From assembly GCA_028286615.1 (NCBI GenBank), contig JAQBRG010000003.1, forward strand, positions 13,125-77,124: a DNA stretch of 64,000 nucleotides, written 5' to 3'. The translations under genes and the position numbers were made by a program. Below are positions 39-30,169 of the stretch, in pieces; the stretch's first letter is position 1; the number at the start of each line of letters is the position of its first letter. The notes beneath the pieces are model-generated. The model had not been told where the DNA came from. It searched no databases and saw only the letters and a list, made by a program, of their open reading frames with translations. This DNA is from Parcubacteria group bacterium (lineage in GTDB: Bacteria > Patescibacteriota > Minisyncoccia > Phycocordibacterales > Phycocordibacteraceae).

Positions 39-122
39 GGTGCGCCGGGGAGGATTCGAACCTCCGAAGCCAGAGGCGGCACGTTTACAGCGTGCTTGTT
101 TTGACCACTTACCTACCGACGC
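39..122 (-). tRNA. tRNA-Tyr (anticodon GTA), class II with a long variable arm. The 3' end encodes discriminator A plus CC but not a full CCA.
   Basis: Read on the minus strand the sequence is GCGTCGG..GCACG-CTGTAAA-CGTGC..GGAGG-TTCGAAT-CCTCC-CCGGCGC-A-CC. The acceptor stem is 7 bp with one G-U pair. The anticodon stem is 5 bp with a 7-nt loop, U33, anticodon GTA and A37. The T-arm carries the canonical GGTTCGAATCC. A 13-nt variable arm with a small stem resembles bacterial tRNA-Tyr. The D-stem pairing is weak by my folding. Confidence 0.7.
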
Positions 123-897
123 ATGAAAAGTTTTCAAAGCGCTGCTGGTGCTTCGTGTTCGCAGGTTTTATTTCGCGAAAGAAGCGCTCAACGTCCTTGC
201 GTCGAGTCAAATACACTACCACTCCTGCACTGATCTCAGACGGTTTGTATTCTAGCTCAATTAGAATACGTCGTAAAGAAACTAGCATGGGCAAGGACAT
301 GTTAGTAAGGGAGATTTGTATACCGAACTTTAGCTTATATACTGACCCGTCTGTATCAAAGAAACCTTTAAGAAAGGCCACTTTCCATTCCTTTCTTTCA
401 AAAATCCACGAAGGGACATCAACTTGTGACGCAACTTTGTTATAAACCAAACCTTCCTTCTGTAGCCATCTAGTTAATTCTACTGATCCAATATAGACGT
501 TACGATAACCATCCTTTCGTACATTAATAGTTGCAGGCGTATTGAAGAGATGTTCCATTAACGAAGCTACGTACTCAACGTACGGAAGTTCCTTTGTACC
601 AAGCGTCACTGTTGCTTGAAAAGGAGACAAATGTCCGTCGCCCAACATAATACCCATGAACTCGGCTAAGAGAACAGAATACTTTGGGAGCACAATATTT
701 TGCTTCTTATTATTGTGTCTCGGCTTCTTATCTGGCGTACACCTAATTCCTAAGCGTCCCATTCGTGCATACAACGTGCTTTCCTTTAAATTTAAGGCAA
801 TAGCCACCTCTCCAAGGGATAAGTTCTGGATTTCATAGAGTTCTACAATTTCTTTTCTGTAGTTCTCCTCTTCTTTTGTGGTCCATCGATTTGGCAT
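109..897 (-). CDS. LAGLIDADG-family homing endonuclease with an N-terminal HTH (sigma-r4-like) domain. Its 3' end overlaps the tRNA-Tyr 5' end by about 14 nt.
   Basis: Two LAGLIDADG-type motifs are present, MGIMLGDGHL and LKGFFDTDGSV, about 100 aa apart. The N-terminus carries LSLGEVAIALNLKESTLYARMGRLGI, a helix-turn-helix. Confidence 0.75.
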   Translation of the reverse strand: MPNRWTTKEEENYRKEIVELYEIQNLSLGEVAIALNLKESTLYARMGRLGIRCTPDKKPRHNNKKQNIVLPKYSVLLAEFMGIMLGDGHLSPFQATVTLGTKELPYVEYVASLMEHLFNTPATINVRKDGYRNVYIGSVELTRWLQKEGLVYNKVASQVDVPSWIFERKEWKVAFLKGFFDTDGSVYKLKFGIQISLTNMSLPMLVSLRRILIELEYKPSEISAGVVVYLTRRKDVERFFREIKPANTKHQQRFENFSCVGR

Positions 898-965: not shown

Positions 966-2210
966 TTACTTCAATACCAATATCAAAACCTCTCGCTTCC
1001 CTCTCTTTACGAGTGCCAGACCGCTTACAAAGTCTTCTATTGAAAGCATCTGTTCGTTTGTAACGGTCTTACCATTTAGACTTATCCCATTTCCTTCAAT
1101 AAGGCGCTTTGCATCAGACTTTGAAGAAACCAAGGGACTGGTTGCGAGCACGTCAAGAACGCTTAGACCTTTTGTAACATCTGCCTTAAGTACTGGAATA
1201 TTTGGTGCCTCAGCAAGAATGGTGGCGTGTGCCAGTTGAGGCAATTCCTTGAGACTTCCTCCAAAGAGTGCGCTTGAAGCGGCTGCAGCGGTTGCTGCTG
1301 CAGCAGGGCCATGCACAGTCTCGGTTATAAGACGTGCAAGAGTCTCCTGCGCTTCACGAGCTCCAGGGTTTTCTTTGTGTGCTGCTATAAGAGTGTCTAT
1401 CTCGGCAATAGAAAGGAATGTGTAGTAACGGAAGTAGTTCTCAAGTCCTTCGTCTGGGAGTGTTAGCCAGAATTGGTAGAACTTAAATGGAGAAGTCTTC
1501 TTTGCATCAAGCCATACGGCATTGCCTTCAGACTTGCCAAACTTCTTTCCTGACGCATCCGTAACAATAGGACCGCAAAGTGCAAATGCTTCTTTTCCTA
1601 ACTTGCGGCGAATAAGCTCAACTCCCGAGAGAATGTTAGTCCATTGGTCAGAGCTTCCAATCTGGAGGTCTACCCCTTTCTTCTGGTACAGCTCAAGGAA
1701 GTCATAACCTTGAAGAAGCGAGTACGCGAACTCAGTGTATGAGATGCTTTCGTCTGGAGTTTCAAGACGGCGGCGTATGATATCTCGCTTGATAAGCTCG
1801 TTAACGGTGAAATGCTTGCCAATATCTCGAAGGAAGTCGACAAGATGCACTTTAAGGAGCCAGTCTGCGTTATCAACAACTGTTATCTTTGCGCCAACTA
1901 TTCGCTGCATCTGCTCTTTGAGCGCCTTCTTGTTCTTTGCTATAGCCTTACTGTCTAAAAGTACTCGCTCTCCTTTTTCTTTCGGGTCCCCGATCATGCC
2001 AGTACCTCCTCCAACAAGAAGGACAATCTTATGTCCGTCTGCAGCAAGACGCTTCATGGTTGTAAGTGGAACAAGGTGCCCTACGTGCATAGAGTCTGCT
2101 GTAGGGTCTACACCTAAATACACCGTCCTCTTCTTTTCAAGGATGGTTTCTATAGGCGCAGAGCTATGTTCTACGAGTCCACGGGCTTTGAGATCTTCAG
2201 CGAGGTTCAT
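966..2210 (-). CDS. tyrS: tyrosyl-tRNA synthetase
   Basis: The class I HIGH motif appears as (M)HVGHL and the KMSKS motif as KFGKS. Length is 414 aa and there is a C-terminal S4-like tail. Confidence 0.93.
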   Translation of the reverse strand: MNLAEDLKARGLVEHSSAPIETILEKKRTVYLGVDPTADSMHVGHLVPLTTMKRLAADGHKIVLLVGGGTGMIGDPKEKGERVLLDSKAIAKNKKALKEQMQRIVGAKITVVDNADWLLKVHLVDFLRDIGKHFTVNELIKRDIIRRRLETPDESISYTEFAYSLLQGYDFLELYQKKGVDLQIGSSDQWTNILSGVELIRRKLGKEAFALCGPIVTDASGKKFGKSEGNAVWLDAKKTSPFKFYQFWLTLPDEGLENYFRYYTFLSIAEIDTLIAAHKENPGAREAQETLARLITETVHGPAAAATAAAASSALFGGSLKELPQLAHATILAEAPNIPVLKADVTKGLSVLDVLATSPLVSSKSDAKRLIEGNGISLNGKTVTNEQMLSIEDFVSGLALVKRGKREVLILVLK

Positions 2211-2239: not shown

Positions 2240-2872
2240 TTAGCCAAGATGAGCGTGGTCATTCCAGGTATATACCCACCATGGCCTGTCCTTGGTCTCG
2301 TCGTACTTAATTATGGTAAGACCCGTATTCTGCGTTCTAAAAGACCACATCATTCGGTCACACTCGTGAGCTGTTAATGCTTCGCCAAAGGTAACTTGCG
2401 CAATAAGTGCTCTTAGAAAGAACCCGTGAGTAACAACAAGAATATGTTCCTCAGGACGCTCCTCCAAATACTGCAATGCTTTTTGTGCACGTTCCTTTAA
2501 ATCATCAAAGTTCTCCTCGTCCGCGAATCGATATCCTGGAACAGTAAAGTTGGCTAGAATATTTTGCTCAGCGATAACAAAATCCTCGTGATCTTTAGGC
2601 TTATCGGTTTGAATGCTGGCTCTGCTTCGTTCAACAAACAATGGTGAGGTCTCAAGTGCCAAACCTGTGCGTTTAGCAACCGCTTCCGCTGTCTGCTCAG
2701 CTCGTAGCAAGGTACTAGCTACGATTGCTTGAACAGGAAGCCGTGAGGCTCTTTCTGCAAGAAACGCAGCTTGCTGCTGCCCTTTCTCCGTTAAGGCTGG
2801 TGCTTCCATCTCAGATATCATGCCTACATTAGCCTCACTCTCCCCATGCCGGATAAGGTATACGGTCTTCAT
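2240..2872 (-). CDS. histidine phosphatase family protein (phosphoglycerate mutase-like)
   Basis: The N-terminal RHGES catalytic motif is present (YLIRHGESEAN), with a later His (VVTHG). Confidence 0.8.
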   Translation of the reverse strand: MKTVYLIRHGESEANVGMISEMEAPALTEKGQQQAAFLAERASRLPVQAIVASTLLRAEQTAEAVAKRTGLALETSPLFVERSRASIQTDKPKDHEDFVIAEQNILANFTVPGYRFADEENFDDLKERAQKALQYLEERPEEHILVVTHGFFLRALIAQVTFGEALTAHECDRMMWSFRTQNTGLTIIKYDETKDRPWWVYTWNDHAHLG

Positions 2873-2874
2873 GC

Positions 2875-4539
2875 TTATACGGGCAGCTCAACAACGAATG
2901 TAGAACCTTTGCCTGCGCCCTCAGACTCTGCCCACACCTTTCCTTTGTGTGCCTCAATTATGTTCTTAACGATGTAGAGACCGAATCCAGTTGATTCAAC
3001 ATTAACTTTAGTTGATTCTTTGCCGTGTCCTCCCTCTGTAAAGAGATGGTGCATGTCCTCAGCAGTTATGCCCACGCCGGTGTCTTTAATATCGAAGTGT
3101 ATTTTTCCATCCTTCTGTGCAAGCGTTACGTCCACGCTTCCAGACGGTGTGTATTTAACTGAGTTGTCTATAAGGTTCTTGAATACGTTTACAAGCTGGC
3201 CGCGGTCCCCGGTAAACATAAGAGGTGCATCACCGGTATGAACATTAAGCGCAAGCCCTTTCTCATCGGCTACGCGTTTCTGCTCCGTAGCAATCTCATC
3301 TACAAGTGCCTTAAGGTCAAAGGACTCCATCTTGTATGAAACCTTTCCGCTCTTAATATTCGCAGCATTAAGAATCTCTTGAATGGTCTGAGTTCCCTTA
3401 GTGTCTGAGTTCAAACCTTCTTGAAGCATGGGGCGCATGGTATCGGGTACAGGTCCAAAGTCTCCATCAAGCACCATGGAGAAGATGTTTCGAGACTTAG
3501 CAACGAAGCCTTTGATTTGGTGCGTGATGAAGTGGATAAGAGTAACTTGCTGCTTGTTTGCCTGCTCAAGTTCTTTAGCAAGTTTTTCGATACGTTCACG
3601 CTGCTCAATCTCCCTTTTAACGCTTCGAAGTAACAAGTATCCCGCTGTAATAACGAACACAAGGGTAACGTATGTAATGTTGTGAGCTGTACCCACATCG
3701 TTGATCAGAAGAAGAGATCCAACCAGAAGAACTAGAGCCACAACCAGTATCTGTGCACCAAACACTTTAATATTAAAGAGTCGGAATCGAACCATGATGT
3801 ACGCAAGCATGCCTATGAATACAGGCACGCCAAATAGTCCATACTGCCCAATGGTCCAACTATAGTCTCCGAGAAAACTAAGGTCGCTAAAAAGGCTACC
3901 TATTATGTTTCCAAAGGCGAAGGATAGAAGAAAGAGGACAATTCCTGTTGAAGCTAATACAATCTGTTTTCTCTGGTCTCCAGGAGGAGTTTTCATGTGC
4001 CTACCAAACGCAAGCAATATTATCCAAATCGCAGATACGAATTCTAAGAAGAAACCGTAGTAGATCAGCGGACCTTCAACAGCATCCCTGTCACAACTGC
4101 TTAGATCGAAACCTGAAAGCGCGAGCATTGTTGGCGTGAGAACAATGATAGGAAGAAATGGGATAAAAATTAAAAGCTTCTTTTTAAAAGAAATGTCTTT
4201 CTTATCTATAAATACGTATACGAAATAGAGACTAAAAAGATACACAAGAGGCTCTGTGAGAATAGTGAGCGACCAGAAGAACATGGTAAATTCCGGTCTA
4301 TCCGTGGCCCATACGACCAAGTCAGAGAAGAGCCATGTGCCCAAACAAAGAGTTATAAGAAACAGAATTCTAGCCGCAAGCGACTTGCGATTCTTCATTA
4401 AAACAAAAAGTCCGAAACCAAGCGATACTACCAAGGCCGTTATGTGAGAATAATAGATCAAAGGATCAAAAACATTGCTTGAGAAAATCAAGAAACTAGG
4501 CCGCGCCCACTCACATGCTTGTATTACGTCAGAAATCAT
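2875..4539 (-). CDS. sensor histidine kinase with a polytopic N-terminal membrane domain and a C-terminal HATPase domain
   Basis: Multiple hydrophobic helices occupy the N-terminal 300 aa. An H-box region (ITHQIKGF) is followed by N, G1 and G2 boxes (NLIDNSVKY, DTGVGI, GTGFGLYIV). Confidence 0.85.
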   Translation of the reverse strand: MISDVIQACEWARPSFLIFSSNVFDPLIYYSHITALVVSLGFGLFVLMKNRKSLAARILFLITLCLGTWLFSDLVVWATDRPEFTMFFWSLTILTEPLVYLFSLYFVYVFIDKKDISFKKKLLIFIPFLPIIVLTPTMLALSGFDLSSCDRDAVEGPLIYYGFFLEFVSAIWIILLAFGRHMKTPPGDQRKQIVLASTGIVLFLLSFAFGNIIGSLFSDLSFLGDYSWTIGQYGLFGVPVFIGMLAYIMVRFRLFNIKVFGAQILVVALVLLVGSLLLINDVGTAHNITYVTLVFVITAGYLLLRSVKREIEQRERIEKLAKELEQANKQQVTLIHFITHQIKGFVAKSRNIFSMVLDGDFGPVPDTMRPMLQEGLNSDTKGTQTIQEILNAANIKSGKVSYKMESFDLKALVDEIATEQKRVADEKGLALNVHTGDAPLMFTGDRGQLVNVFKNLIDNSVKYTPSGSVDVTLAQKDGKIHFDIKDTGVGITAEDMHHLFTEGGHGKESTKVNVESTGFGLYIVKNIIEAHKGKVWAESEGAGKGSTFVVELPV

Positions 4540-4709
4540 ATTTGTACTTCAGGTGTGCTTGAGGCTTCCTCAGTATCTATTGTCTGTTCAGGCTCTGGTA
4601 GAAAAATGTCAAAATTTTGAATGACCACATACCTATAGTAAGTAACGCCGACAGAAGCCAGAATTACAAACGCAAACAACCAGAGAAATATCTTTGACTT
4701 CTTATCCAT
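4536..4709 (-). CDS. small (57 aa) single-TM protein, translationally coupled to the histidine kinase (ATGA stop/start overlap). It is not in the supplied ORF track.
   Basis: My manual translation gives MDKKSKIFLWLFAFVILASVGVTYYRYVVIQNF...PEVQI. It has a hydrophobic core, and its stop overlaps the HK start codon. Confidence 0.35.
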   Translation of the reverse strand: MDKKSKIFLWLFAFVILASVGVTYYRYVVIQNFDIFLPEPEQTIDTEEASSTPEVQI

Positions 4710-5199
4710 GCTTCTTGAGCTGATGGTAAGAATTATACACCCTCTGGAAATAGGTTGGCACGTAGGGCAGGTATTTCTTATACGTGGCTAAAGGTATGTG
4801 CTGAATTGAGCGTACAACAGGTCGGAAGCCTGGAACACTTTTCTTCTCGCCATTTTCCATTTCCCACAAGAGCGTCTCTTCAGTGATTGAGTAGTCGATT
4901 GTCACCTCCTCCCCTTTCTTTATATTTCTTAATGCAACAAAAGTAACCCTTCCTTTTATTCCCATATTTGGGTTACAGGAGTGATTCATATACAAAAAAG
5001 GATACGCAGGATCAATCCACGTATCTTTACCCACTCCTACCCAGTTGGGGCCTTCCTGAGCTGTGCTTTTGTCTTTCACGTGCCATTTTTTAAGTTTACC
5101 TTTAAGAATAAATATAATTTCTCCACGTTTAAAATTACGACTTGCGAATATACCCCTACCCTCGATGGAACTTTCTTTTACATAAATGTTCCGGGTCAT
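4702..5199 (-). CDS. SET-domain protein (putative lysine methyltransferase), paralog 1
   Basis: The SET signature NHSCNPN is present, followed by a downstream ...VTIDYS... motif, about 165 aa total, with a hydrophobic Tyr-rich C-terminus. Confidence 0.8.
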   Translation of the reverse strand: MTRNIYVKESSIEGRGIFASRNFKRGEIIFILKGKLKKWHVKDKSTAQEGPNWVGVGKDTWIDPAYPFLYMNHSCNPNMGIKGRVTFVALRNIKKGEEVTIDYSITEETLLWEMENGEKKSVPGFRPVVRSIQHIPLATYKKYLPYVPTYFQRVYNSYHQLKKHG

Positions 5200-5205
5200 G
5201 AGTAT

Positions 5206-5700
5206 TTAAGCTTGAACCAAGTCAGTACCCTGCTGATGCTTTAAGTATAGCTTTTTGAAATAGGTAGGCACATACGGTAAGTATTTCTTGAACTGCTCAT
5301 TGGGAATATATCGTATTGAGCGGATCACTTTGCGACAATTGGCTTCCCCACACGAACAAGGCATTTCCCAAAGATCATCTCCTTCGATAATTGAGTAGTC
5401 AACCGTGATCTCCTCGCCCTCTCTAATATCTTTGAGAGCAACCATGGTAACTGTGCCCTTTATTCCAGAATTTGGGTTACAAGAGTGGTTTAGATACTGG
5501 TTAGGTGCATTCGGGTCTATCCATTTGTTTTTTCCAATGCCAATCCAGTTAGGGTACGAAAGAGACTCCTCTTTAGAGGTAATGGCAAGGAATTTAGCCT
5601 CACCCTTTATGTGCTGTATAGTTTCTCCTTTCTTGATATCCTCTCCAGCCGTAACCCCCTGGCCATCAATCTTGCTAGTGCAAATATATATATGCTTCAT
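5206..5700 (-). CDS. SET-domain protein, paralog 2, with a post-SET Cys cluster
   Basis: NHSCNPN and ITVDYS are present, plus CSCGEANC (post-SET zinc cluster). It is collinear with and similar to the adjacent 4702..5199 protein. Confidence 0.8.
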   Translation of the reverse strand: MKHIYICTSKIDGQGVTAGEDIKKGETIQHIKGEAKFLAITSKEESLSYPNWIGIGKNKWIDPNAPNQYLNHSCNPNSGIKGTVTMVALKDIREGEEITVDYSIIEGDDLWEMPCSCGEANCRKVIRSIRYIPNEQFKKYLPYVPTYFKKLYLKHQQGTDLVQA

Positions 5701-5798
5701 AAGCCTTTGCTTTGATTATACTAGACTAATAATGGTAAAAAATGCAATCTTTGGTAATAAGTGTAAAAAGAGGTCTGCATCGCTGGAGCGAGCAGACC

Positions 5799-6380
5799 TC
5801 AAGTTTTTTGGAACTTTTTGTAGAGAACCAACACCAGGATGAGGCTGTGAGTTCCGAGATGCACTACAGGAAAGGCTAGCTCCCCTAAGTGGTTCAGACG
5901 CATCAGCACAACAACGAGGTGCAGAGCGTATGCGACGGACCAAACAGCCCATGGCAGCCAGTGTTCTTTATGCTTGTCTGCCAAGATGTCTCTGGCCATA
6001 GGCCTGAAAGACAGGACGGTGCTTGCTTGGTAGAGCAGGTTTGCAACAAGTGCGGTGGTGAAGAGCCAGAGGAAGGTGATGAAGGTATCCAATCCGAAGA
6101 TCAGCCAATCTTCTTTCTCTGGCTTATCGAGCCGCCCTTTTGCAAACAAGTACCCAACCATAATCATGCAGGCCATGGAACAGGTGAAAGGAAGAACTTC
6201 CTTAACCCAGTCCTCGGCAACGAACGCGTACGACAAGGCGTCCACGAACGCACCGAAAGCCCACATGACCCAAGAGCCGGCGCCTGCTTGTTTGGTTAGT
6301 TTGACGTAGAGGTAATACCCCAGTAATTGCGTCGCCCCGGCCAACAAGCCCAGGGCAACCGAAAAATGTTCGGTACCCAT
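5799..6380 (-). CDS. polytopic membrane protein of unknown function (locally GC-rich)
   Basis: There are 5-6 hydrophobic helices. GC is by eye higher than the flanks. No motif recognised. Confidence 0.5.
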   Translation of the reverse strand: MGTEHFSVALGLLAGATQLLGYYLYVKLTKQAGAGSWVMWAFGAFVDALSYAFVAEDWVKEVLPFTCSMACMIMVGYLFAKGRLDKPEKEDWLIFGLDTFITFLWLFTTALVANLLYQASTVLSFRPMARDILADKHKEHWLPWAVWSVAYALHLVVVLMRLNHLGELAFPVVHLGTHSLILVLVLYKKFQKT

Positions 6381-6533
6381 CAGGGCCTCCTATGGCTAGT
6401 GTTCAAATATCAAGCAATGAAGCTCTTTTACAGAGCTTTACATCACAACTGACGTGATTATAGCATATACTTGTTATTTTGCAAGTATATCTCTAGTTCG
6501 AAACTATAATAATAGTGGCATACTGTTTTAACT

Positions 6534-8529: not shown

Positions 8530-9948
8530 TTAAATATCAAGGTCTAAAAGTTCGGTCAGACTGTTTATGCTTAAGTACCTTGACTCATCCAAGTCTGAGA
8601 TGTTTTGTACACGCCATGAATTAGGATTCCTAAAATGAATTCCTCTAAGACCAGCCTGAAGTGCTGGCTCTATATCTGAACGTAAACTATTTCCTACCAC
8701 TAAAAATTCACCAGAATCAAGATTAAAATCGTACCTCAATCGCCCAAGCGAGCTTACATCTTTAGATTTTACGACGCAAAGTGCATGAAAGTATTCGGCT
8801 AATCCAGAGCGAGCAATTTTCTCAAACTGAATTGACAGTGGTCCTTGTGTATAGAGAACAAGTCCATCACCACGTTTCCATAGCTTTGATAGCACTGCAA
8901 TTGCATCGGCAGTCAAGGTTTCTGGCTGACTCCTTAGAGTAGGGATGATTGATTCAAATAACTCCGTGGGTCTGGGAATCAACTTTCCAGAAAGAAGGAG
9001 ATTCGCATAAATAGTCTCTAGAGAAATCTTAAAACCAGGCGCGCCAAAACCGTGCTCAAGTATTACTTTTTCCTCCATATCGTCTATCATCTGACGAACT
9101 TCTTGCTCAGTTATTTCCTGTAGGTAAGGAAGACAGTGTTCAATAAAATCATCAACTATTTTCATGTAAGCAATGTTGTCCTCCCATAGAGTGTCGTCAC
9201 CATCAATTATCCATGTTCTTCGAAAAGTCCCATCTAACGAAGCTGTTTTACAAAAGTAGTAATCCCCTTCTTCTGGGAAGACCGCTGGAATCGTGTGCTT
9301 GCCCTCAGAAAATTTACTGTAAAGATATCCAAAATTCTGCGGCGTAATCTCGCCAAGTAATTGCTCTGCGTTAACTGAAAAACCTGCCTCCTCAAAAGCA
9401 GTCAGTTTCTTTGGGTTGTTGCTAAGGAGAGAGATTTTTTTAATATCCATGTCCTTAAGGATTTTAAAAGCGAGCGAATAGATTCTACCGTCAGTTTCAA
9501 AAGCAAGCTTTTCATAAGCGCCGTAAGTGCTCAGAGACTGTGACTGCATGGTGTACATTCCTAAGTATTTTGAAAAGATACCTGCTCCACGCCCTTCTTG
9601 AAATAAATGAATCAGTACTCCATTTTCTTGTCTCAAAATATCAATCGAACGCAGGAGCTGGCTGCGACAGTCGCAATCAAAGCTTCCTAGTATGTCGCTG
9701 TTAGCGCATGACGAATGAAGTCTTATTGGAACTACACGGGAAGTGTTTAAAAATTCAGGTTCATTGAAGATTACAACCAATGCAGTTTGTTCCTTATCAG
9801 TGTAAATACAGGAATACACGAGACCATTGCTGGTAAAATGTCTAACAAATGGAGTTTTCGTAGTCTCTTCGTCGACTTGTATCGTCGGATCGTAGAGAGC
9901 GTTGTTTATTTGCTCTGTCCCAATATTAGTTTTTCGTGCCGATGTCAT
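8530..9948 (-). CDS. fusion protein: N-terminal GTP cyclohydrolase II (RibA)-like domain plus C-terminal HAD-superfamily hydrolase domain
   Basis: The RibA zinc site is present as RLHSSCANSDILGSFDCDCRSQL, with QEGRGAGI and LSNNPKKL (compare E. coli RVHSEC..CDCG, RQEGRNIGL, LTNNPKK). The C-terminal half carries HAD motif I, IIDGDDTLWED. Confidence 0.75.
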   Translation of the reverse strand: MTSARKTNIGTEQINNALYDPTIQVDEETTKTPFVRHFTSNGLVYSCIYTDKEQTALVVIFNEPEFLNTSRVVPIRLHSSCANSDILGSFDCDCRSQLLRSIDILRQENGVLIHLFQEGRGAGIFSKYLGMYTMQSQSLSTYGAYEKLAFETDGRIYSLAFKILKDMDIKKISLLSNNPKKLTAFEEAGFSVNAEQLLGEITPQNFGYLYSKFSEGKHTIPAVFPEEGDYYFCKTASLDGTFRRTWIIDGDDTLWEDNIAYMKIVDDFIEHCLPYLQEITEQEVRQMIDDMEEKVILEHGFGAPGFKISLETIYANLLLSGKLIPRPTELFESIIPTLRSQPETLTADAIAVLSKLWKRGDGLVLYTQGPLSIQFEKIARSGLAEYFHALCVVKSKDVSSLGRLRYDFNLDSGEFLVVGNSLRSDIEPALQAGLRGIHFRNPNSWRVQNISDLDESRYLSINSLTELLDLDI

Positions 9949-23588: not shown

Positions 23589-24203
23589 TTAGAATACAGG
23601 TTCCACATCATTGTATGGCATGGCTTGAATGGCAGAGTCCTCAGGGAAATCTGCTTTGAGGTTTCGCAGATACCGATTGTACATTCGATACCCTTCCTCT
23701 TGATTCGGAGCAATTCCAACGTAGCGATTCTTGCCCTGCAGAACTATCCGAACTTCCCAGCGACTGCTAGTACGTACCCAGAGCACCCCTCTACGTGATG
23801 AGTATGTTATAAACGCTAGGTTTGATCGCCTGAAATCAAGCAAATGGTCGACTCTACAGACAGGGCCATCAAGCGACCTTCCCATGCGTTCCCATATTAT
23901 ATGGTTTAGAGTCATGCAGGACACTTCCCCAGCAACAGACCGTCGCCTTCGGATTTGAATACTTTGTTGTCTACTCTTGCCGCAGATATTTCCGCACCAA
24001 ATGTATTCTTTCATCACCTCCAGATCTTCAGGAGAGACGAGTACATACCACCCATACAGAGCGGACGGGTTTCGGTTTCTAAGACGACACGCAACAAAGG
24101 GACCTTTCTCGTCACTGCCTTTCACAAAATCACGCCCGATTGCTTGAGCATGAGTGAAGAGAGGCGTGAGCGGCTTCCCGTTAAGCATGACTGGTTTGGC
24201 CAT
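23589..24203 (-). CDS. HNH endonuclease with a C-terminal AP2 DNA-binding domain (phage/intron-type homing-endonuclease architecture)
   Basis: The HNH_3-type motif VDHLLDFRRSNL matches DHxxxxxxNRxxNL. A Cys pair is upstream (CGNICG). The AP2-like segment is WEVRIVLQGKNRYVGIAPNQEEGYRMYNRY. Confidence 0.7.
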   Translation of the reverse strand: MAKPVMLNGKPLTPLFTHAQAIGRDFVKGSDEKGPFVACRLRNRNPSALYGWYVLVSPEDLEVMKEYIWCGNICGKSRQQSIQIRRRRSVAGEVSCMTLNHIIWERMGRSLDGPVCRVDHLLDFRRSNLAFITYSSRRGVLWVRTSSRWEVRIVLQGKNRYVGIAPNQEEGYRMYNRYLRNLKADFPEDSAIQAMPYNDVEPVF

Positions 24204-24562
24204 CTGTCTCTCCCAAATAACAAATACAGCTGCGTGGAGTCTACAAGAAGGGTTGGGTAAGTCAATTTATGCGCCATTACTAATATCTATCTCCTAATTA
24301 CAAAAAGGACCGCATCCAAACCAAGGCTTGGATGCGGTGAGGAATTTGTGCATTCGATCATTCTAACGTCTTATTCATTAGACGCATGACGATTTCGGTC
24401 AAGTTTTGAAAAACTCGGCACAACACCGGTCGGCAGAAAGATGGGGGTAGACAGGAGGCGCACAAACCATCTCTCCTTGATGTTGCATGTAGGACAATCC
24501 GACGTATCTCTTCCTTGCGTCTTGCGCGCCTAGACTAATACTGTAACAAATAAATACTCTTT

Positions 24563-24602
24563 GTCAAAGAGAAACCCCGTCTTGAAACGGGGTCTTTCTC
24601 TT
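24563..24602 (-). terminator. terminator after rpsI (end of the ribosomal/rpoA operon)
   Basis: Stem ccccgt/acgggg with T-rich tracts on both sides, immediately after the rpsI stop. Confidence 0.6.
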
Positions 24603-24608
24603 ATAAAA

Positions 24609-25010
24609 CTAACGCTTGCTCCACTGAGGACGCTTGCGGGCCTTGAGAAGACCTGGCTTCTTTCGTTCCTTAGCACGAGGATCACGAGTGAGAAGTCCTG
24701 CAGCCTTGAGAGTCTTGCGGCTTCCCTCTTCTGCCTTCTCAACTGCGCGAGCAATAGCATGACGAACTGCCTGAGCCTGAGCTGAGATGCCACCACCCTG
24801 TACCTTTGCTTCTACAGCATAAGTATCTTTCCACTCTCCTGCGCGGAATACGTCGGTGGTAACTGACTCGCGCTCTGCGGTCTTGAAGTAGTCCTTAGCA
24901 GACACACCGTTAACCATAACGGAGGTCTTAGCTGCAGGAGTAAGCTTCACGCGAGCGCTCGCAGTCTTGCGGCGTCCGACAGCGACAGTGTAGTTGGTTG
25001 ATTCGGGCAT
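24609..25010 (-). CDS. rpsI: 30S ribosomal protein S9
   Basis: The C-terminus is ...ARKRPQWSKR and length is typical. Confidence 0.95.
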   Translation of the reverse strand: MPESTNYTVAVGRRKTASARVKLTPAAKTSVMVNGVSAKDYFKTAERESVTTDVFRAGEWKDTYAVEAKVQGGGISAQAQAVRHAIARAVEKAEEGSRKTLKAAGLLTRDPRAKERKKPGLLKARKRPQWSKR

Positions 25011-25028
25011 AGTAAATCTCGGGTGCTA

Positions 25029-25412
25029 TTAATCGACGAGCGTAAGACGCTTCATGCGCTCCTTGCGAAGCGAGTTGCGAGGGATCATACCGTCTACGGC
25101 TTTGCGCATAACCTCCCCGATGCCTTTCTTCTCGATAAGCATCTGCATGGTGGTGGTGATAAGACCTCCTGGGTACTGTGTGTAACGTGTGTAGGCTTTT
25201 CCAGCGATACGACGCTCGCTCATAAGAAGCTTTGATACGTTTACAACCTCAACTTCAACAGGAAGCACTTCGTTCTTCATAAAGTGAGGAGACTTCTTGC
25301 CTAGGAGTGCTGATGCAGCCTCAGAAGCAACACGGCCGAGGGACTGGCCCGCTGCATCGATGGTGTAGAGCGTACGCTCTCCTTTCTGAGTCTTAGTGAT
25401 GGTCATAGTCAT
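25029..25412 (-). CDS. rplM: 50S ribosomal protein L13 (start trimmed to an internal Met to avoid overlap with rplQ)
   Basis: L13-like sequence. The supplied ORF extends 5' into rplQ, so the true start is probably MTMTITKT. Confidence 0.9.
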   Translation of the reverse strand: MTMTITKTQKGERTLYTIDAAGQSLGRVASEAASALLGKKSPHFMKNEVLPVEVEVVNVSKLLMSERRIAGKAYTRYTQYPGGLITTTMQMLIEKKGIGEVMRKAVDGMIPRNSLRKERMKRLTLVD

Positions 25413-25413
25413 G

Positions 25414-25767
25414 TTATACGAAGGCGATGTACGCGGTCTTGCGTCCGTCTGTTGCGGTTGCTGCACGCTTTACGATACGAGTGTATCCTCCAGGACGTTC
25501 AACGTAGCGAGGAGCGATAGAAGCGAAAAGCTTCTTGGTAACCTCGTCATCGTTTCCAAGACGAGCTGATACCAGACGACGGTTCGCTACGCTATCAACG
25601 CGAGCGTGAGAAACAAGCTTCTCGATGATAGGTCGGAGTTCCTTGGCCTTGGCCTCGGTTGTTGAAATACGCTCGTGAATGATGAGCGAACGCATAAGGC
25701 CTCGCATAAGCGCAGTGCGCTGGTCATGCGAGCGTCCAAATGATCGTCCTTTATGTTGATGGCGCAT
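25414..25767 (-). CDS. rplQ: 50S ribosomal protein L17
   Basis: MRHQHKGRSFGR..., typical L17. Confidence 0.93.
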   Translation of the reverse strand: MRHQHKGRSFGRSHDQRTALMRGLMRSLIIHERISTTEAKAKELRPIIEKLVSHARVDSVANRRLVSARLGNDDEVTKKLFASIAPRYVERPGGYTRIVKRAATATDGRKTAYIAFV

Positions 25768-25803
25768 ACGTAGTTTTTAACACGAATCCTTACTATAGGC
25801 TAC

Positions 25804-26778
25804 TTATTCGCCTTTGAGCTCCAAACCGAGCTTGTCGAGGGCTTCAGCGATCTCAGTTACGGCCTTGTCGCCGATACCATCCATCTCCTTAAGCTGCGTG
25901 CCGGTCTTGCGAACGAGACCTGCTACAGACTTGATACCTCCCTCTTCTAGGGCGGCTGAGATGCGAGGGCTGAGCTCGAGTTCCTCAATCTTTACCTTAG
26001 CGGGATCCTTGCCCACTGCAGGCGCTACAACGGCCGCAGGCTTTGCCATACCAGCAATTGCAGGAATTGATACGTCATGAGTCTCGGTCTCCTCCTGGAA
26101 GCCAATTACAGACTTAAGCTGGTGGATCATGATCTCAATTGAGCGCTCAAGAGCCTCACGAGGTGTGATGGTTCCGTTGGTCTCAATAAGAAGGCGAAGA
26201 CGGTTGAAGTCTGTTCGGTCTCCAACGCGCATGTTCTCAACTTCGTAGTTGGCACGGCGAATAGGAGTGAACGTAGCATCAAGAGCGATAGTACCGATGT
26301 CTACCTTGTCGCGGGTAAGAACCTCGCGAGGTACGTAGCCAAGACCGCGCTCGATGGTTGCCTCAAGTTCAAAAGCGATCTTGCCAGAAACGTCAGCAAT
26401 GTGTGCTTCTGGGTTAGCAATACCAACCTGGGTTGGAAGCTGGAAATCTGCTGCAGTTACTTGCTTAGGACCTTTTACTGAAAGACGAATGGTCTGCGCC
26501 TCGTCTCCCTGAAGAGTGAAGTGTACGCGCTTAAGGTTAAGGAGAACCTCCATAACTGATTCGCGAACACCTTCCATGGTTGCGAATTCGTGCTGTACGC
26601 CCTCAATCTTTACAGACGTAACGGACGCTCCTGGAAGTGAGGAAAGAATAATACGGCGAAGCGAGTTTCCGAGTGTGTGACCGTATCCAGGGTATAGAGA
26701 ATCGATCTCATATACGCCCTGTACGCCCTCTTCAGAGACTACGCGAGGCTTAGACGGAAGTGTGATGTGGTGTTCCAT
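25804..26778 (-). CDS. rpoA: DNA-directed RNA polymerase alpha subunit
   Basis: N-terminal alpha-NTD, and a C-terminal alpha-CTD helix-hairpin-helix (GIGDKAVTEI). Confidence 0.95.
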   Translation of the reverse strand: MEHHITLPSKPRVVSEEGVQGVYEIDSLYPGYGHTLGNSLRRIILSSLPGASVTSVKIEGVQHEFATMEGVRESVMEVLLNLKRVHFTLQGDEAQTIRLSVKGPKQVTAADFQLPTQVGIANPEAHIADVSGKIAFELEATIERGLGYVPREVLTRDKVDIGTIALDATFTPIRRANYEVENMRVGDRTDFNRLRLLIETNGTITPREALERSIEIMIHQLKSVIGFQEETETHDVSIPAIAGMAKPAAVVAPAVGKDPAKVKIEELELSPRISAALEEGGIKSVAGLVRKTGTQLKEMDGIGDKAVTEIAEALDKLGLELKGE

Positions 26779-26828
26779 AACTCAATCAATGTTAACCAAA
26801 ATGTATAAAAGCACTGAGCACCTACGGA

Positions 26829-27446
26829 CTAACGGCTGTAGAACGAGAGCACCGTAACGAGATCTCCCGCTGGCTGCGCGCTTTCCATAGTAGGAACCTC
26901 TTGGAGGCTGCCTTCCATAGACTTCGCATTCCATGAGAGCCACGCAGGAAGCGTAGGACGCTCATTGAACTTCTCTGCGAAGTTCTCAAAGAGCCCTGCG
27001 CTCTTGCTACCGTCACGAACTGCAATCTTGTCTCCAGGACGCATAGCACGTGAAGGAATAGTTGTCTTAACTCCGTTCACGGTTATGTGGCCATGAGAGA
27101 CCATCTGACGAGCGCCACGTCGGCTCGGTGCAACACCGAGGCGGTACATAACGTTGTCGAGACGAAGCTCAAGATTGCGGTGAAGCACTTCGGTTGGAAT
27201 AGCTCCGTGAGTAGCAACGGCAGCACGCACGTATGCTGAGAACTGACGCTCAGAGATACCGTAGGTCATACGTACCTTCTGCTTCTCAAGAAGCTGCTTG
27301 CCGAATTCAGTCTGGTTACGACGTCCGCCAGAACGCTTGTTCTTTGCGGAACGCTCTTCAGCGAGTGCAAACTTCTGGCTCTGTGTCTTTGGGAAGACGC
27401 TTGCACCGAGACGCTTAGCTATTTTGTATTGTGGTCCAATTTTCAT
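26829..27446 (-). CDS. rpsD: 30S ribosomal protein S4
   Basis: An S4 domain is present, and the gene sits in the conserved rpsM-rpsK-rpsD-rpoA-rplQ order. Confidence 0.95.
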   Translation of the reverse strand: MKIGPQYKIAKRLGASVFPKTQSQKFALAEERSAKNKRSGGRRNQTEFGKQLLEKQKVRMTYGISERQFSAYVRAAVATHGAIPTEVLHRNLELRLDNVMYRLGVAPSRRGARQMVSHGHITVNGVKTTIPSRAMRPGDKIAVRDGSKSAGLFENFAEKFNERPTLPAWLSWNAKSMEGSLQEVPTMESAQPAGDLVTVLSFYSR

Positions 27447-27452
27447 ATGAGT

Positions 27453-27887
27453 TTATACGCGACGAGGCTTAGGGGGACGAGGTCCGTTATGTGGTACTGG
27501 AGTTGCGTCCTTGATTGAACGGATAGCAATACCCTTGCTTGAGAAGGCGCGAAGAGCAGACTCGCGTCCAGCTCCGATACCGCGAATAACAACTGAAGCT
27601 TCCTTGAGGCCGATTGCCATAGCCTTCTCACCGAGAAGCTCGCCAACCTTAGCCGCTGCATAAGGAGTTGATTTACGTGCGCCTGAGAAGCCAAGAGCTC
27701 CTGCAGAAGAAGACATGATTGCGTTTCCAGCATCGTCTGTAAGAACGGCCTTGGTGTTGTTGAAGGTAGCTTCAACATGGAGAATGCCGCGCTCGATGCG
27801 CTTCTTTGCAATCTTAGAAAGGGCACGCTCCTTGCGTCCCTGGTCGAGACCCTTTCCTGACTTCTTGATGATACGTTTCTTACCCAT
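27453..27887 (-). CDS. rpsK: 30S ribosomal protein S11
   Basis: The S11 signature and the conserved gene order. Confidence 0.95.
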   Translation of the reverse strand: MGKKRIIKKSGKGLDQGRKERALSKIAKKRIERGILHVEATFNNTKAVLTDDAGNAIMSSSAGALGFSGARKSTPYAAAKVGELLGEKAMAIGLKEASVVIRGIGAGRESALRAFSSKGIAIRSIKDATPVPHNGPRPPKPRRV

Positions 27888-27905
27888 AGGAAATTATATA
27901 AAGGA

Positions 27906-28286
27906 TTAGGTCTTCTCGAGCGTACGACGACCGCTACCCATAGTCTTGCGAGTGTTTCCACGAACAGTACGAGAGTTGGTCTTGGTGCGCTGATTGCGAA
28001 CTGGAAGACGGCGCTCGTGACGGATGCCACGTGCTGAACGAATATCCTTAAGGCGCTTGATGTTCTGTCCGATCTCACGGCGGAGCTCTCCTTCGATTGT
28101 GTATGCCTCAGCAAGAAGACGAATGCTCTGCTCTTCTTCTGGAGTTAGTTCACTTCCCTTCTTGGTCTCTGAAATCTTTGCTTCAGCAAGAATAAGACGA
28201 GAACGCATTGGACCGATGCCATAGATAAGAGGCAGCGCGTATAGGAGCTGCTTGTCATCTGGAAGGGTTACACCGGCGATACGCAT
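27906..28286 (-). CDS. rpsM: 30S ribosomal protein S13
   Basis: MRIAGVTLP..., typical S13. Confidence 0.95.
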   Translation of the reverse strand: MRIAGVTLPDDKQLLYALPLIYGIGPMRSRLILAEAKISETKKGSELTPEEEQSIRLLAEAYTIEGELRREIGQNIKRLKDIRSARGIRHERRLPVRNQRTKTNSRTVRGNTRKTMGSGRRTLEKT

Positions 28287-28314
28287 GTGAGAATAAACTT
28301 AAGTACTAAAATAA

Positions 28315-28431
28315 TTAGCCCTGACGTGCTTTACGACGAGGGTTGCGCTTGTTGATACGGTACAAACGACCGCGACGGCGGACGAGAATATCTCCAGGCT
28401 GCTGGACTTTAATTGAGGCGCGGACTTTCAT
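28315..28431 (-). CDS. rpmJ: 50S ribosomal protein L36. It is not in the ORF track, which lists only ORFs of at least 60 aa.
   Basis: My manual translation gives [38 protein letters not shown], which lacks the canonical Cys ribbon. It lies between infA and rpsM, as is conserved. Confidence 0.8.
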
Positions 28432-28449
28432 CGGGTTTATGATTTGGTG

Positions 28450-28668
28450 CTACGACAATCTACGAACGATACGTGCCCGGCCGCCATACGGATCGAGGAC
28501 CAACTCAACGTTGTCCCCAACCAGTACGCGTATACGGTGCAAACGCATCTTTCCAGCAAGGTAGGCGAGTAGAAGTTCCCCTGAAGGCATCCTTACTCGA
28601 AACAACGAGTTAGGAAGCACCTCTTCAACGGTGCCGGTGGTCGGCTCCTCAGCTCTCGTTTCCTCCAT
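28450..28668 (-). CDS. infA: translation initiation factor IF-1 (start at the internal Met MEETRAEE...)
   Basis: An S1-like OB fold is present (GTVEEVLPNSLFRVRMPSGELLLAYLAGKMR...). The position upstream of rpmJ is conserved. Confidence 0.85.
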   Translation of the reverse strand: MEETRAEEPTTGTVEEVLPNSLFRVRMPSGELLLAYLAGKMRLHRIRVLVGDNVELVLDPYGGRARIVRRLS

Positions 28669-28715
28669 GTGTAGCTTGGGTATAGTAGCAGGATTAAAAT
28701 ACAGCGTCAACCGTA

Positions 28716-29987
28716 TTACTGAGCATTTCCGGCCTCTTCTACCTCAACGGTGATTTTCTCCGGATTAGCGGGGAAAGAACCCTTCCAGAAAGGACGAAGA
28801 ACGAGCCTTGCGCGGTCCACTTCTGGGAAGCCTGTGAGAGCTACTTCAGCTGAATTACGGGTCTTTCCAGCCACTGCTGCAGCTATCTTAGTACCCTCTA
28901 CTTTCCATACAACGGTTGTGTTTCCTGACAGGGAGAAGGCAAATTCAGGCTGTCCAGCAGGTGAGGTGTTCACCGTAGGAGTGAGCTTGAGCTGGTCTAC
29001 CCTTGCCAGCACTACAGGCTGTCCTGAGTAGCTTCCAACGGTCTTGTAGGCTACCGACTTCGCAAGTGCTTCAGCTGGGAAGACTACGGCTGTTATGGAA
29101 CCCTTTACACGCACCTCAACTGTTCCGGTAGCACCAGCTATATCTGGCTGGGGCTCGTAGGTAGCGAATGTTGAGCCAGGTACGAGTACGTATCCGGCTG
29201 GAACTTTTTCTTTAACTGCGGTTTCAAGGTCTCCAACGAGAGTACCTTGGAGTGTTTGGGACTCCCGGTCCTTTGTTGCTTGGCTAACTGAAGGACGCGG
29301 ACCGGAGAAGCCACCCTGCATAGGATCTGCTGAACGCCCTGTTACCTGCGTAAAGGCAGCTGAGCCTGTAAGACCAGGAACCGTGAAGGTTGTAGGTCCT
29401 ACATTGTATTTGTCTCCAGCTTCGTCTGCGTAGACCGTAACGGAAAGACTTCCTGGAGTGCCGTTTTTAGCTGCTGGAACGGTTATAGAGTCACGAATAC
29501 GGAAGATTAAGCCGTCTGGAGTCTGGAAACGAGTGTTCTTTATAAGCTGCTGAGCTGCTGCCTGCTGGTTCGTAATAGTAATAGTTCCCTGTGCTGGCTG
29601 GTTAACAGTTTCGGTTGATTCAGCCTGAACTGAATTGCTTGCTACTTTGTCTACGGAAATAACTTCAAATGGAAGATCTCCCGCTGAAGCAGTTGCTATG
29701 AAGTCAGAAGTTATAGACACCTGGTTCATGGCAGGCGTTATAGAAACCTTGGCGCCTGAGAATGCGTATAGTGCCGCAGCTGATCCAATAACAACAACCA
29801 GAGCGATAATCGCGGTACCCAGTGGAAACTTCCTGCCTGAAGAAGGAGGACGTATTGGTGGAGGAACTGGTCGAGGAGGTTCGTTGCTGTAAACAGGCTG
29901 AGGCATGTCTACGGGCTGACCCATTTCACCCGTCATGGGGCGGCGACGTGATGGAGGTACGATGTCGTTCAAGCTTTTGTGCTGCAT
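28716..29987 (-). CDS. membrane-anchored protein: Pro-rich cytoplasmic N-terminus, single TM, large extracytoplasmic beta-rich domain; unknown function
   Basis: PPRPVPPPIRPP precedes a TM helix (AIIALVVVIGSAAALYAF). The remainder is Ser/Thr/Val-rich. Confidence 0.5.
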   Translation of the reverse strand: MQHKSLNDIVPPSRRRPMTGEMGQPVDMPQPVYSNEPPRPVPPPIRPPSSGRKFPLGTAIIALVVVIGSAAALYAFSGAKVSITPAMNQVSITSDFIATASAGDLPFEVISVDKVASNSVQAESTETVNQPAQGTITITNQQAAAQQLIKNTRFQTPDGLIFRIRDSITVPAAKNGTPGSLSVTVYADEAGDKYNVGPTTFTVPGLTGSAAFTQVTGRSADPMQGGFSGPRPSVSQATKDRESQTLQGTLVGDLETAVKEKVPAGYVLVPGSTFATYEPQPDIAGATGTVEVRVKGSITAVVFPAEALAKSVAYKTVGSYSGQPVVLARVDQLKLTPTVNTSPAGQPEFAFSLSGNTTVVWKVEGTKIAAAVAGKTRNSAEVALTGFPEVDRARLVLRPFWKGSFPANPEKITVEVEEAGNAQ

Positions 29988-30169
29988 ATGTAATTAAAAG
30001 TGTTCTAGAGGCGTTCCCCTAATGCTATAGAACTAGTATACCGAGCACGCTAAGCAGTGCAAAGCATGTCGAGCAAGTTGTGGGTATAAGTTATTGAGCT
30101 TCGGCTTGCTTACGAAAATGCAGAAATATGGGGCGCCGCTAGTTTCAAACGAAAGAATCGCATTACAAA

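Follow-up and report, generated by a model that had tools for sequence, protein, structure and literature searches.

Research on SET-domain enzymes has dealt almost entirely with chromatin writers and host-directed effectors. The subject of this analysis is a tandem pair of SET genes, SET-A and SET-B, found on a 64,000-nucleotide stretch of DNA (the window) from a Parcubacteria group bacterium (contig JAQBRG010000003.1, positions 13,125 to 77,124), where they form part of a four-part cassette with a seven-transmembrane (7-TM) protein, Mem193, a micro-protein, miniTM, and a histidine kinase with a 7-TM sensor. Two described enzymes, vSET (PBCV-1, 119 aa) and BurB (Burkholderia, 172 aa), share the build of the pair: single-domain proteins of the 120–180-aa class with GxG, NH and a conserved Tyr. 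The substrate of vSET is H3K27 and that of BurB is free methionine, and, unlike the SET proteins of the window, the two have no link to membrane proteins or a kinase. The window family also differs from both in having its own C-terminal tail, LPxxxFKKYLPYVPTYF, and SET-B has an MLL-like CxCx4C. The relationship of SET-B to BurB falls short of orthology, as the match covers residues 62–136 only (E 9e-8, 24–26% identity) and no bur/dimethylsulfoniopropionate-pathway genes were found in the SET neighbourhood. The SET and post-SET regions of KMT2/MLL enzymes are collinear with SET-B through GxG, NHSC, ELxxDY and CxCx4C (26–28% identity, Foldseek E 5e-10, template modelling (TM) score 0.57–0.63), whereas the window proteins lack N-flanking and partner-binding regions, have a shorter SET-I insert and are encoded in a prokaryotic operon; SET-A, in addition, lacks the Zn cluster. 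SET domains in bacteria are represented by Chlamydia NUE and Legionella RomA/LegAS4 (PMC3980110, PMC2904774). NUE and RomA/LegAS4 have signals for secretion as well as additional modules, and their site of action is the host nucleus, while the window proteins have no extra modules and would be membrane-tied on the cytoplasmic side. The SET pair is not a member of the effector, BurB or KMT2 families.

Systems that resemble the cassette in layout are found among membrane signalling devices. MgrB and SafA, acting with PhoQ, are small membrane-protein modulators, and in BceAB–BceS and LysP–CadC a transporter serves as co-sensor. The likeness lies in a single-pass protein of about 50 aa and a transporter-like protein encoded together with a kinase that has no extracytoplasmic domain; it is one of layout and does not come from sequence, and none of these systems includes a methyltransferase. 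Chemotaxis adaptation, in which CheR tunes CheA, offers a functional analogy only, that of an S-adenosylmethionine (SAM)-dependent methyltransferase coupled genetically to a membrane receptor and a kinase. CheR belongs to the class I enzymes and O-methylates glutamate residues, whereas the window enzymes have the SET fold and would be expected to N-methylate; the cassette contains neither a methyl-accepting chemotaxis protein nor CheA, and no demethylase or esterase was found.

A SET gene pair within a conserved four-part cassette

The genes of the cassette in the window are as follows, in the order in which they would be read:

5799..6380, minus strand: Mem193, a 193-aa 7-TM protein, the conserved partner upstream of the SET genes
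5206..5700, minus strand: SET-B, a 164-aa SET methyltransferase
4702..5199, minus strand: SET-A, a 165-aa paralogue of SET-B
4536..4709, minus strand: miniTM, a 57-aa single-pass membrane protein
2875..4539, minus strand: the histidine kinase, 554 aa, with a polytopic HisKA_7TM sensor and a HATPase_c domain

SET-A and SET-B are adjacent open reading frames (ORFs) separated by 6 nt, and their products are 49% identical over 158 residues (BLASTP, E 1e-56). A preliminary description, made from the letters of the window, had recognized them as paralogous SET proteins sharing NHSCNPN, and a profile search bears this out: against the Pfam SET family (PF00856, cut-off 22.4 bits) SET-A scores 57.5 bits (E 2e-15) and SET-B 53.1 bits (E 5e-14), both above the gathering score, and the motif is present in both. 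Both proteins keep G13xG15, N71-H72-S73-C74 and D101-Y102, including the conserved catalytic Tyr and Asn (Y102, N71), at positions that are invariant or nearly so across 268 members of the family. As had also been noticed, the post-SET sequence CSCGEANC (C115xC117x4C122) is confined to SET-B; the corresponding letters of SET-A are MENGEKKSVPGF, in which the cysteines are replaced by N-x-E...F/Y-R. Membership of the SET superfamily is confirmed for the pair by every testable feature, the optional Zn cluster of SET-A excepted, and the intact motifs make catalytically competent SAM-dependent SET methyltransferases the best reading of both.

The predicted structure agrees with this assignment. An AlphaFold2 model of SET-B (predicted local distance difference test score, pLDDT, 91.5; predicted TM score, pTM, 0.84) retrieved with Foldseek the SET domains of MLL4 (E 5e-10), MLL1, BurB (E 4e-9, rank 3, TM score 0.63), NSD and ASH1L as top matches, all with probability 1.00. 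By sequence, the best Protein Data Bank (PDB) match of SET-B is the KMT2D SET domain (E 7e-12), followed by weaker matches to KMT2C and MLL SET domains, and BurB is also among the matches (E 9e-8). SET-A would share the fold, judging by its identity to SET-B. In both proteins the SET fold extends from residue 3 to about residue 130 and is followed only by the family tail, which in SET-B reads LPxxxFKKYLPYVPTYFKK. Both exact proteins are present in public NCBI records from a "Parcubacteria group bacterium" metagenome-assembled genome (MAG), on a contig of 278 kb, where SET-A is named "protein-lysine N-methyltransferase" and SET-B (P0001) "nuclear protein"; the SET identity is therefore the part of this work that was already annotated. 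The name "nuclear protein", which is also the public name of Mem193 (P0218), is wrong for a bacterium, and in the case of Mem193 it may derive from the SET fusions described below.

The SET pair belongs to a cassette composed of Mem193, one or two SET proteins, miniTM and the 7TM-sensor histidine kinase, and this cassette is conserved across Parcubacteria/Paceibacteria. Eighty loci from species-representative genomes were compared, of which 79 were tabulated (L026 was left out, as its SET gene runs off the contig); the closest set comprises 41 tabulated loci, L001–L042 without L026, mostly from Patescibacteria MAGs. Within this set a kinase orthologue lies directly downstream of the SET gene and on the same strand in 32 of the 36 loci that could be assessed, usually after a gap of 140–190 bp, indicating that the kinase adjacency seen in the window is conserved and not incidental. 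A Mem193 homologue (polytopic, about 195 aa) lies directly upstream of the SET gene in 33 of the 41. Over all 79 loci, Mem193 and the kinase are both present in 31 and both missing from 25, and the remaining neighbours vary from locus to locus, the next most frequent being DnaJ (13 loci). The five-gene layout of the window, with tandem SET genes, recurs under independent gene calls on two public metagenome contigs, L081 (194 aa, SET 159, SET 154, 53 aa, kinase 560) and L082 (at least 169 aa, touching the contig end, SET 160, SET 162, 56 aa, kinase 543), and reverse sampling from Mem193 relatives recovers the same gene set.

The order of the genes is not fixed. At L027 it is SET-Mem-kinase, and at L085 and L087 the SET gene is divergent from Mem-(miniTM)-kinase. 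Because all the parts are retained through these rearrangements while other neighbours change, the parts appear to be linked functionally and not by mere synteny. No description of the cassette or of its fusions was found in the limited literature searched, and an earlier description elsewhere is possible; the combination of a PQ-loop/SWEET-fold 7-TM protein, one or two SET proteins, a micro-protein and a 7TM kinase, together with the fusions, appears to be undescribed. Among the models of PADLOC-DB, SET-A, SET-B, Mem193 and miniTM match no defence system, and the kinase gives only a generic ATPase-domain match.

Gene fusions and membrane partners

Several lineages encode the parts as single chains. 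Fusions of a Mem193-like domain, at the N-terminus, to a SET domain are present at L048, L056 and L068, all from Alphaproteobacteria, and in protein P0228, while protein P0235 (530 aa) is a 7TM-SET-SET chain in which both SET domains are intact and which mirrors the gene order of the window. The linker between the seventh transmembrane helix (TM7) and the SET domain is short in these fusions, which would bring the active site close to where the 7-TM bundle opens into the cytoplasm. Natural fusions of this kind argue for a physical complex. SET-SET single chains occur at three further loci and an overlapping gene pair at a fourth:

L044, 7968-8945: SET plus pseudo-SET, single chain
L045, 2249-3184: SET plus pseudo-SET, single chain
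L049, 3091-4011: SET plus pseudo-SET, single chain
L057, 7980-8934: SET plus pseudo-SET, overlapping gene pair

In these four, NHSC has become RHSC or KHSC in the second domain, and DY has become DD; with both the asparagine of NH and the catalytic Tyr lost, this domain would be a pseudo-enzyme half. Neither Mem193 nor the kinase was found near these SET-SET genes.

Mem193 matched no Pfam, NCBIfam or PADLOC model, and 26 members of its family scanned at E up to 0.1 matched none of the Pfam PQ-loop/MtN3_slv models. A word-indexed homologue search with Mem193 returned only Mem193 itself; an exhaustive search with HMMER brought up 438 cluster representatives (E up to 0.001), most of them 190–215 aa long. 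A PDB profile search gave only a match to a lectin, which was judged spurious. The AlphaFold2 model, built on an alignment of 80 cluster representatives (pLDDT 96.5, pTM 0.91), has seven transmembrane helices in a 3+1+3 arrangement with an internal repeat, which is the PQ-loop/SWEET/KDEL-receptor fold, and its fold matches include cystinosin, SWEET transporters and the KDEL receptor at 6–13% identity. A Pro/Trp motif is repeated in the alignment after TM1 and after TM5; unlike proteins of the PQ-loop/SWEET/KDEL-receptor class, Mem193 has the motifs PN..SW and P..E..PW and not PQ. A positive-inside count of its loops (13 Lys/Arg on the predicted inner side, 2 on the outer) places the C-terminus, and hence any fused SET domain, in the cytoplasm, in agreement with the SAM-dependent nature of the fused domains. 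No fusion of a PQ-loop/SWEET-fold protein to a methyltransferase was found described in the literature searched. A protein at another locus (P0355, L089 3220-4422, 400 aa) apparently consists of two Mem193-like 7-TM units, of which the first alone was formally matched; no SET gene or kinase was found near it, so the 7-TM family occurs outside the cassette as well.

miniTM consists of a basic N-terminus, a transmembrane helix, a TYYRYV..DF.IF motif (TYYRYV..DF.IFTDE in homologues) and an acidic tail. It matched no Pfam family, and NCBIfam and PADLOC were also blank. At its start the gene shares 8 nt with the end of SET-A, and at its stop 4 nt with the beginning of the kinase gene. Homologous single-pass ORFs of 36–65 aa fill the SET-kinase gap in about 30 loci, and independent gene calls at this position gave proteins of 53, 56, 50 and 47 aa.

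The kinase is recognized by HATPase_c (E 7e-26) and, narrowly, by HisKA_7TM (29.8 bits against a cut-off of 28.6). Its phospho-acceptor His340 is invariant and its N, G1 and G2 boxes are intact; each of H340, N455, N459, D486, G488, G490, G518 and G520 reaches at least 90% conservation across 38 orthologues. In the N-terminal 160 residues the same degree of conservation is reached by C9, W11, N22, Y29-Y30-S31-H32, W69, W77, W89, E96, C149, R151 and E155, and the conserved Cys pair in this membrane sensor could form a disulfide or a ligand site. The preliminary description had regarded the kinase as an orphan. Indeed, a jackhmmer search seeded with CheY and PhoB found no receiver domain within the 64-kb window, and the same run found receivers at other loci. 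A receiver gene directly follows the kinase at only three of about 40 cassette loci:

L012, 10350-10760, minus strand: receiver-domain gene after the kinase
L023, 10203-11063: receiver-domain gene after the kinase
L033, 10341-10715: receiver-domain gene after the kinase

The three genes are candidate cognate response regulators of a kinase that otherwise lacks one.

The wider SET family and the rest of the window

A search with SET-B gave 303 homologues; the 120 listed are of about 160 aa and 57–84% identical to it, and the named ones among them are nearly all from Parcubacteria, Paceibacterota or Patescibacteria. When one genome per GTDB species was scanned, at least 501 stretches with confirmed relatives of this SET subfamily came up, and the family extends to DPANN and Nitrososphaerales archaea, proteobacteria, cyanobacteria and Leptospira. 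The earlier view that bacterial SET proteins are uncommon finds no support in these numbers.

In a neighbour-joining tree of 268 family members, sequences without the post-SET cysteines fall into three separate clades of 28 (including SET-A), 4 and 2, a pattern pointing to three separate losses of the cluster with retention of the catalytic motifs. All 28 members of the SET-A clade keep G13, G15, N71, H72, C74, D101 and Y102, and in this clade the three cysteines are replaced in one fixed manner by N, E and F/Y. At L030 and L031 a Cys-less orthologue is the only SET protein of this family found beside the kinase. The idea that SET-A is a decaying duplicate was rejected, because no catalytic residue has been lost in its clade, the Cys cluster is substituted there in a single fixed manner, and Cys-less copies are the only members of this SET family found at these two kinase loci. 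Tandem pairs are 46–69% identical within the pair in five loci. The upstream copies of the window, L081 and L082 are orthologous (66–71% identity), while the downstream copies are not orthologous to one another and the L082 pair is 69% identical; from these sequence relationships the tandem duplication appears to have arisen repeatedly and independently. The same grounds led to the rejection of one ancient duplication event that left fixed orthologues upstream and downstream.

A second, much more divergent family of short SET-like proteins (FFNH(D/S)..N type), scoring 24–43 bits against the family profile, recurs near the cassette:

L016, 8492-8881: divergent short SET-like gene, placed between the main SET gene and the kinase
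L015, 10242-10784: divergent short SET-like gene
L031, 1293-1829, minus strand: divergent short SET-like gene
L063, 9814-10458: divergent short SET-like gene

Three further elements in the window concern the transcription of the cassette and its flank:

6457..6484, minus strand: promoter-like site upstream of Mem193, TTGCAA-16-TATAAT with a TG extension (10/12 in the consensus scan, a pattern match only)
5765..5798, minus strand: terminator-like hairpin and U-run directly after the Mem193 stop codon, read from the sequence
2240..2872, minus strand: His_Phos_1 gene of the histidine-phosphatase superfamily (Pfam E 1e-35)

The hairpin folds at −23.1 kcal/mol in RNAfold and was not listed by the consensus scan; a TATAAT lies at 5715–5720, between the hairpin and SET-B. 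The start of the His_Phos_1 gene overlaps the stop of the kinase, in the same direction, and in the window the two are probably co-transcribed. This gene is outside the conserved cassette, as it is absent from the recurrent neighbours; at other loci its position is taken by NUDIX, Gmad2 or an ABC transporter.

Elsewhere in the window, a LAGLIDADG_3 homing-endonuclease-like ORF (262 aa, 109..897, minus strand) lies between the tyrosyl-tRNA synthetase gene (966..2210) and tRNA-Tyr (39..122), and the last 14 nt of the ORF lie within the tRNA gene. The G+C content is 0.50–0.51 at 24000–30000 and 0.40–0.46 in the first 16 kb. A 472-aa ORF at 8530–9948 (minus strand) has a GTP cyclohydrolase II domain (E 2e-31) and, in its C-terminal half, a weak HAD-hydrolase-like match (E 0.008) that is below the cut-off.

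Function of the cassette

We favour a model, to which we give about an even chance, in which SET-A and SET-B would be the soluble, cytoplasmic, enzymatic part of a membrane-associated cassette tied to two-component signalling, with a protein-lysine substrate at the membrane. The SET proteins would bind Mem193 on its cytoplasmic face, perhaps with the basic C-terminal tail that is specific to their family, and at two-copy loci they would act as a heterodimer. They would then N-methylate a lysine of a protein at the membrane, the candidate targets being juxtamembrane lysines of miniTM and the cytoplasmic loops of the 7-TM protein or of the kinase, and the methyl mark would modulate kinase signalling or be controlled by it. 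A protein-lysine substrate is favoured because the closest relatives of the pair are lysine methyltransferases. An oligomer of SET-A and SET-B has precedent, since BurB crystallizes as a dimer and is tetrameric in solution (PMC12542666) and vSET forms a side-by-side homodimer (bioRxiv 10.1101/264291). A further reading, which we consider less likely than not, is a hitherto unrecognised signalling or transport device in which the SET protein, often an enzyme of two domains or two subunits, would dock on the PQ-loop/SWEET-fold 7-TM protein and N-methylate either juxtamembrane lysines of the receptor complex, tuning the kinase in a CheR-like manner, or a transported amine, giving methylation-coupled translocation.

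Several observations weigh against the favoured model. No lysine is at least 90% conserved among the 38 kinase orthologues, and the family alignments of Mem193 and miniTM contain no invariant lysine; the cassette thus offers no evident fixed site for a methyl acceptor. Small-molecule transporters make up most of the characterised PQ-loop/SWEET-fold proteins. Docking through the tail would fit the tendency of the YLPYVPTYF-type tail and Mem193 to occur together (both in 36 cases, neither in 28, 21 discordant), but this correlation is confounded by phylogeny. Given the hairpin and the TATAAT that follows it, Mem193 may be transcribed separately from the SET genes in the window. The Alphaproteobacteria at L048, L056 and L068 have the Mem-SET core without the kinase, and the kinase link may be specific to Patescibacteria; the proteobacterial neighbourhoods, whether the genes are fused (L048, L056, L068) or separate and adjacent (L043), are inconsistent (GmrSD, VWA, CHASE4 kinase, OPT transporter) and gave no substrate clue. 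BurB, finally, is a SET enzyme that methylates a free amino acid (PMC12542666), and its distance from SET-B is much the same as that of the histone enzymes.

The last point leads to an alternative that we consider somewhat doubtful but a serious rival, in which the methyl acceptor of the same membrane complex would be a small molecule bound or transported by Mem193, either a free amino acid or some other amine or thioether metabolite, and the kinase would sense the metabolite or its flux. BurB, a 172-aa stand-alone SET protein, S-methylates free methionine (PMC12542666) and ranks among the top sequence (E 9e-8) and fold matches of SET-B; the fold matches of Mem193 to cystinosin and SWEET transporters, the short TM7-SET linker that puts the active site near the cytoplasmic mouth of the bundle, and the lack of a conserved acceptor lysine in the cassette proteins all fit this alternative, while the lysine methyltransferases among the closest relatives of the pair speak for the protein substrate that we favour. 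That the enzymes are instead housekeeping lysine methyltransferases acting on ribosomal proteins, EF-Tu or nucleoid proteins, with neighbours kept by inherited synteny and SET-A redundant or decaying, is unlikely. The high conservation of the family in very small genomes (57–84% among the 120 homologues listed) and the frequency of aminoacyl-tRNA synthetase, DnaK and DnaJ genes on the flanks would suit such a role; a SET domain fused to a 7-TM protein, four parts that survive rearrangement while other neighbours change, overlapping coding sequences, and a SET-A clade that retains its catalytic residues in 28 of 28 members and replaces its Cys cluster in one fixed way would not.

The layout of the cassette also invites comparison with agrB-agrD-agrC: a polytopic protein of about 190 aa, a peptide of about 50 aa and a purely membrane-embedded sensor. 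By this analogy miniTM, with its hydrophobic N-terminus and acidic C-terminal tail, would be a precursor or an anchored signal, handled by the 7-TM protein, modified by the SET enzymes and sensed by the kinase, and the KDEL receptor fold does bind peptides. However, Mem193 and miniTM have no Pfam match at E up to 0.01 in a library that includes the AgrB and AgrD families, the hydrophobic segment of miniTM resembles a stable transmembrane anchor, and its predicted extracytoplasmic part, which a cytoplasmic SET protein would be unable to reach, is lysine-free in the window copy and in most homologues; we regard a peptide-signal role as quite improbable. The preliminary description had proposed a role in protein methylation or in host interaction, in the manner of histone-targeting effectors; Chlamydia NUE, Legionella RomA/LegAS4 and Burkholderia BtSET are of this kind. 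Methylation remains a reasonable activity; secretion of the pair to methylate host histones or other host proteins is very improbable. The SET domain does have eukaryote-like motifs, with eukaryotic histone methyltransferases as best PDB matches, and some Paceibacteria have histone-bearing archaeal hosts (PMC10936435). With the fold starting at residue 3 and only about 40 residues following the post-SET region, there is nevertheless no signal peptide, nuclear localization signal or ankyrin module; the AnkI/LegAS4 model NF043024 gives 14.7 and 15.4 bits against a 550-bit cut-off; in several lineages, proteobacterial MAGs among them, a 7-TM protein carries the SET domain as a covalent extension of its cytoplasmic end; and the tight linkage is to a kinase and not to secretion genes.

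The analysis corrects the misleading public "nuclear protein" names of SET-B and Mem193. Here a SET family is kept in some of the smallest bacterial genomes, linked to a 7-TM protein, a micro-protein and a sensor kinase. If the favoured model is true, it would give bacterial SET domains a physiological, non-host role, assign a function to an unannotated 7-TM family of 438 clusters (E up to 0.001), and offer a rare way into the signal transduction of Patescibacteria, a group in which the understood regulatory systems are few. Should the reading as a signalling or transport device prove true, it would represent a new bacterial role for the SET fold and a new class of partner for PQ-loop-fold proteins.

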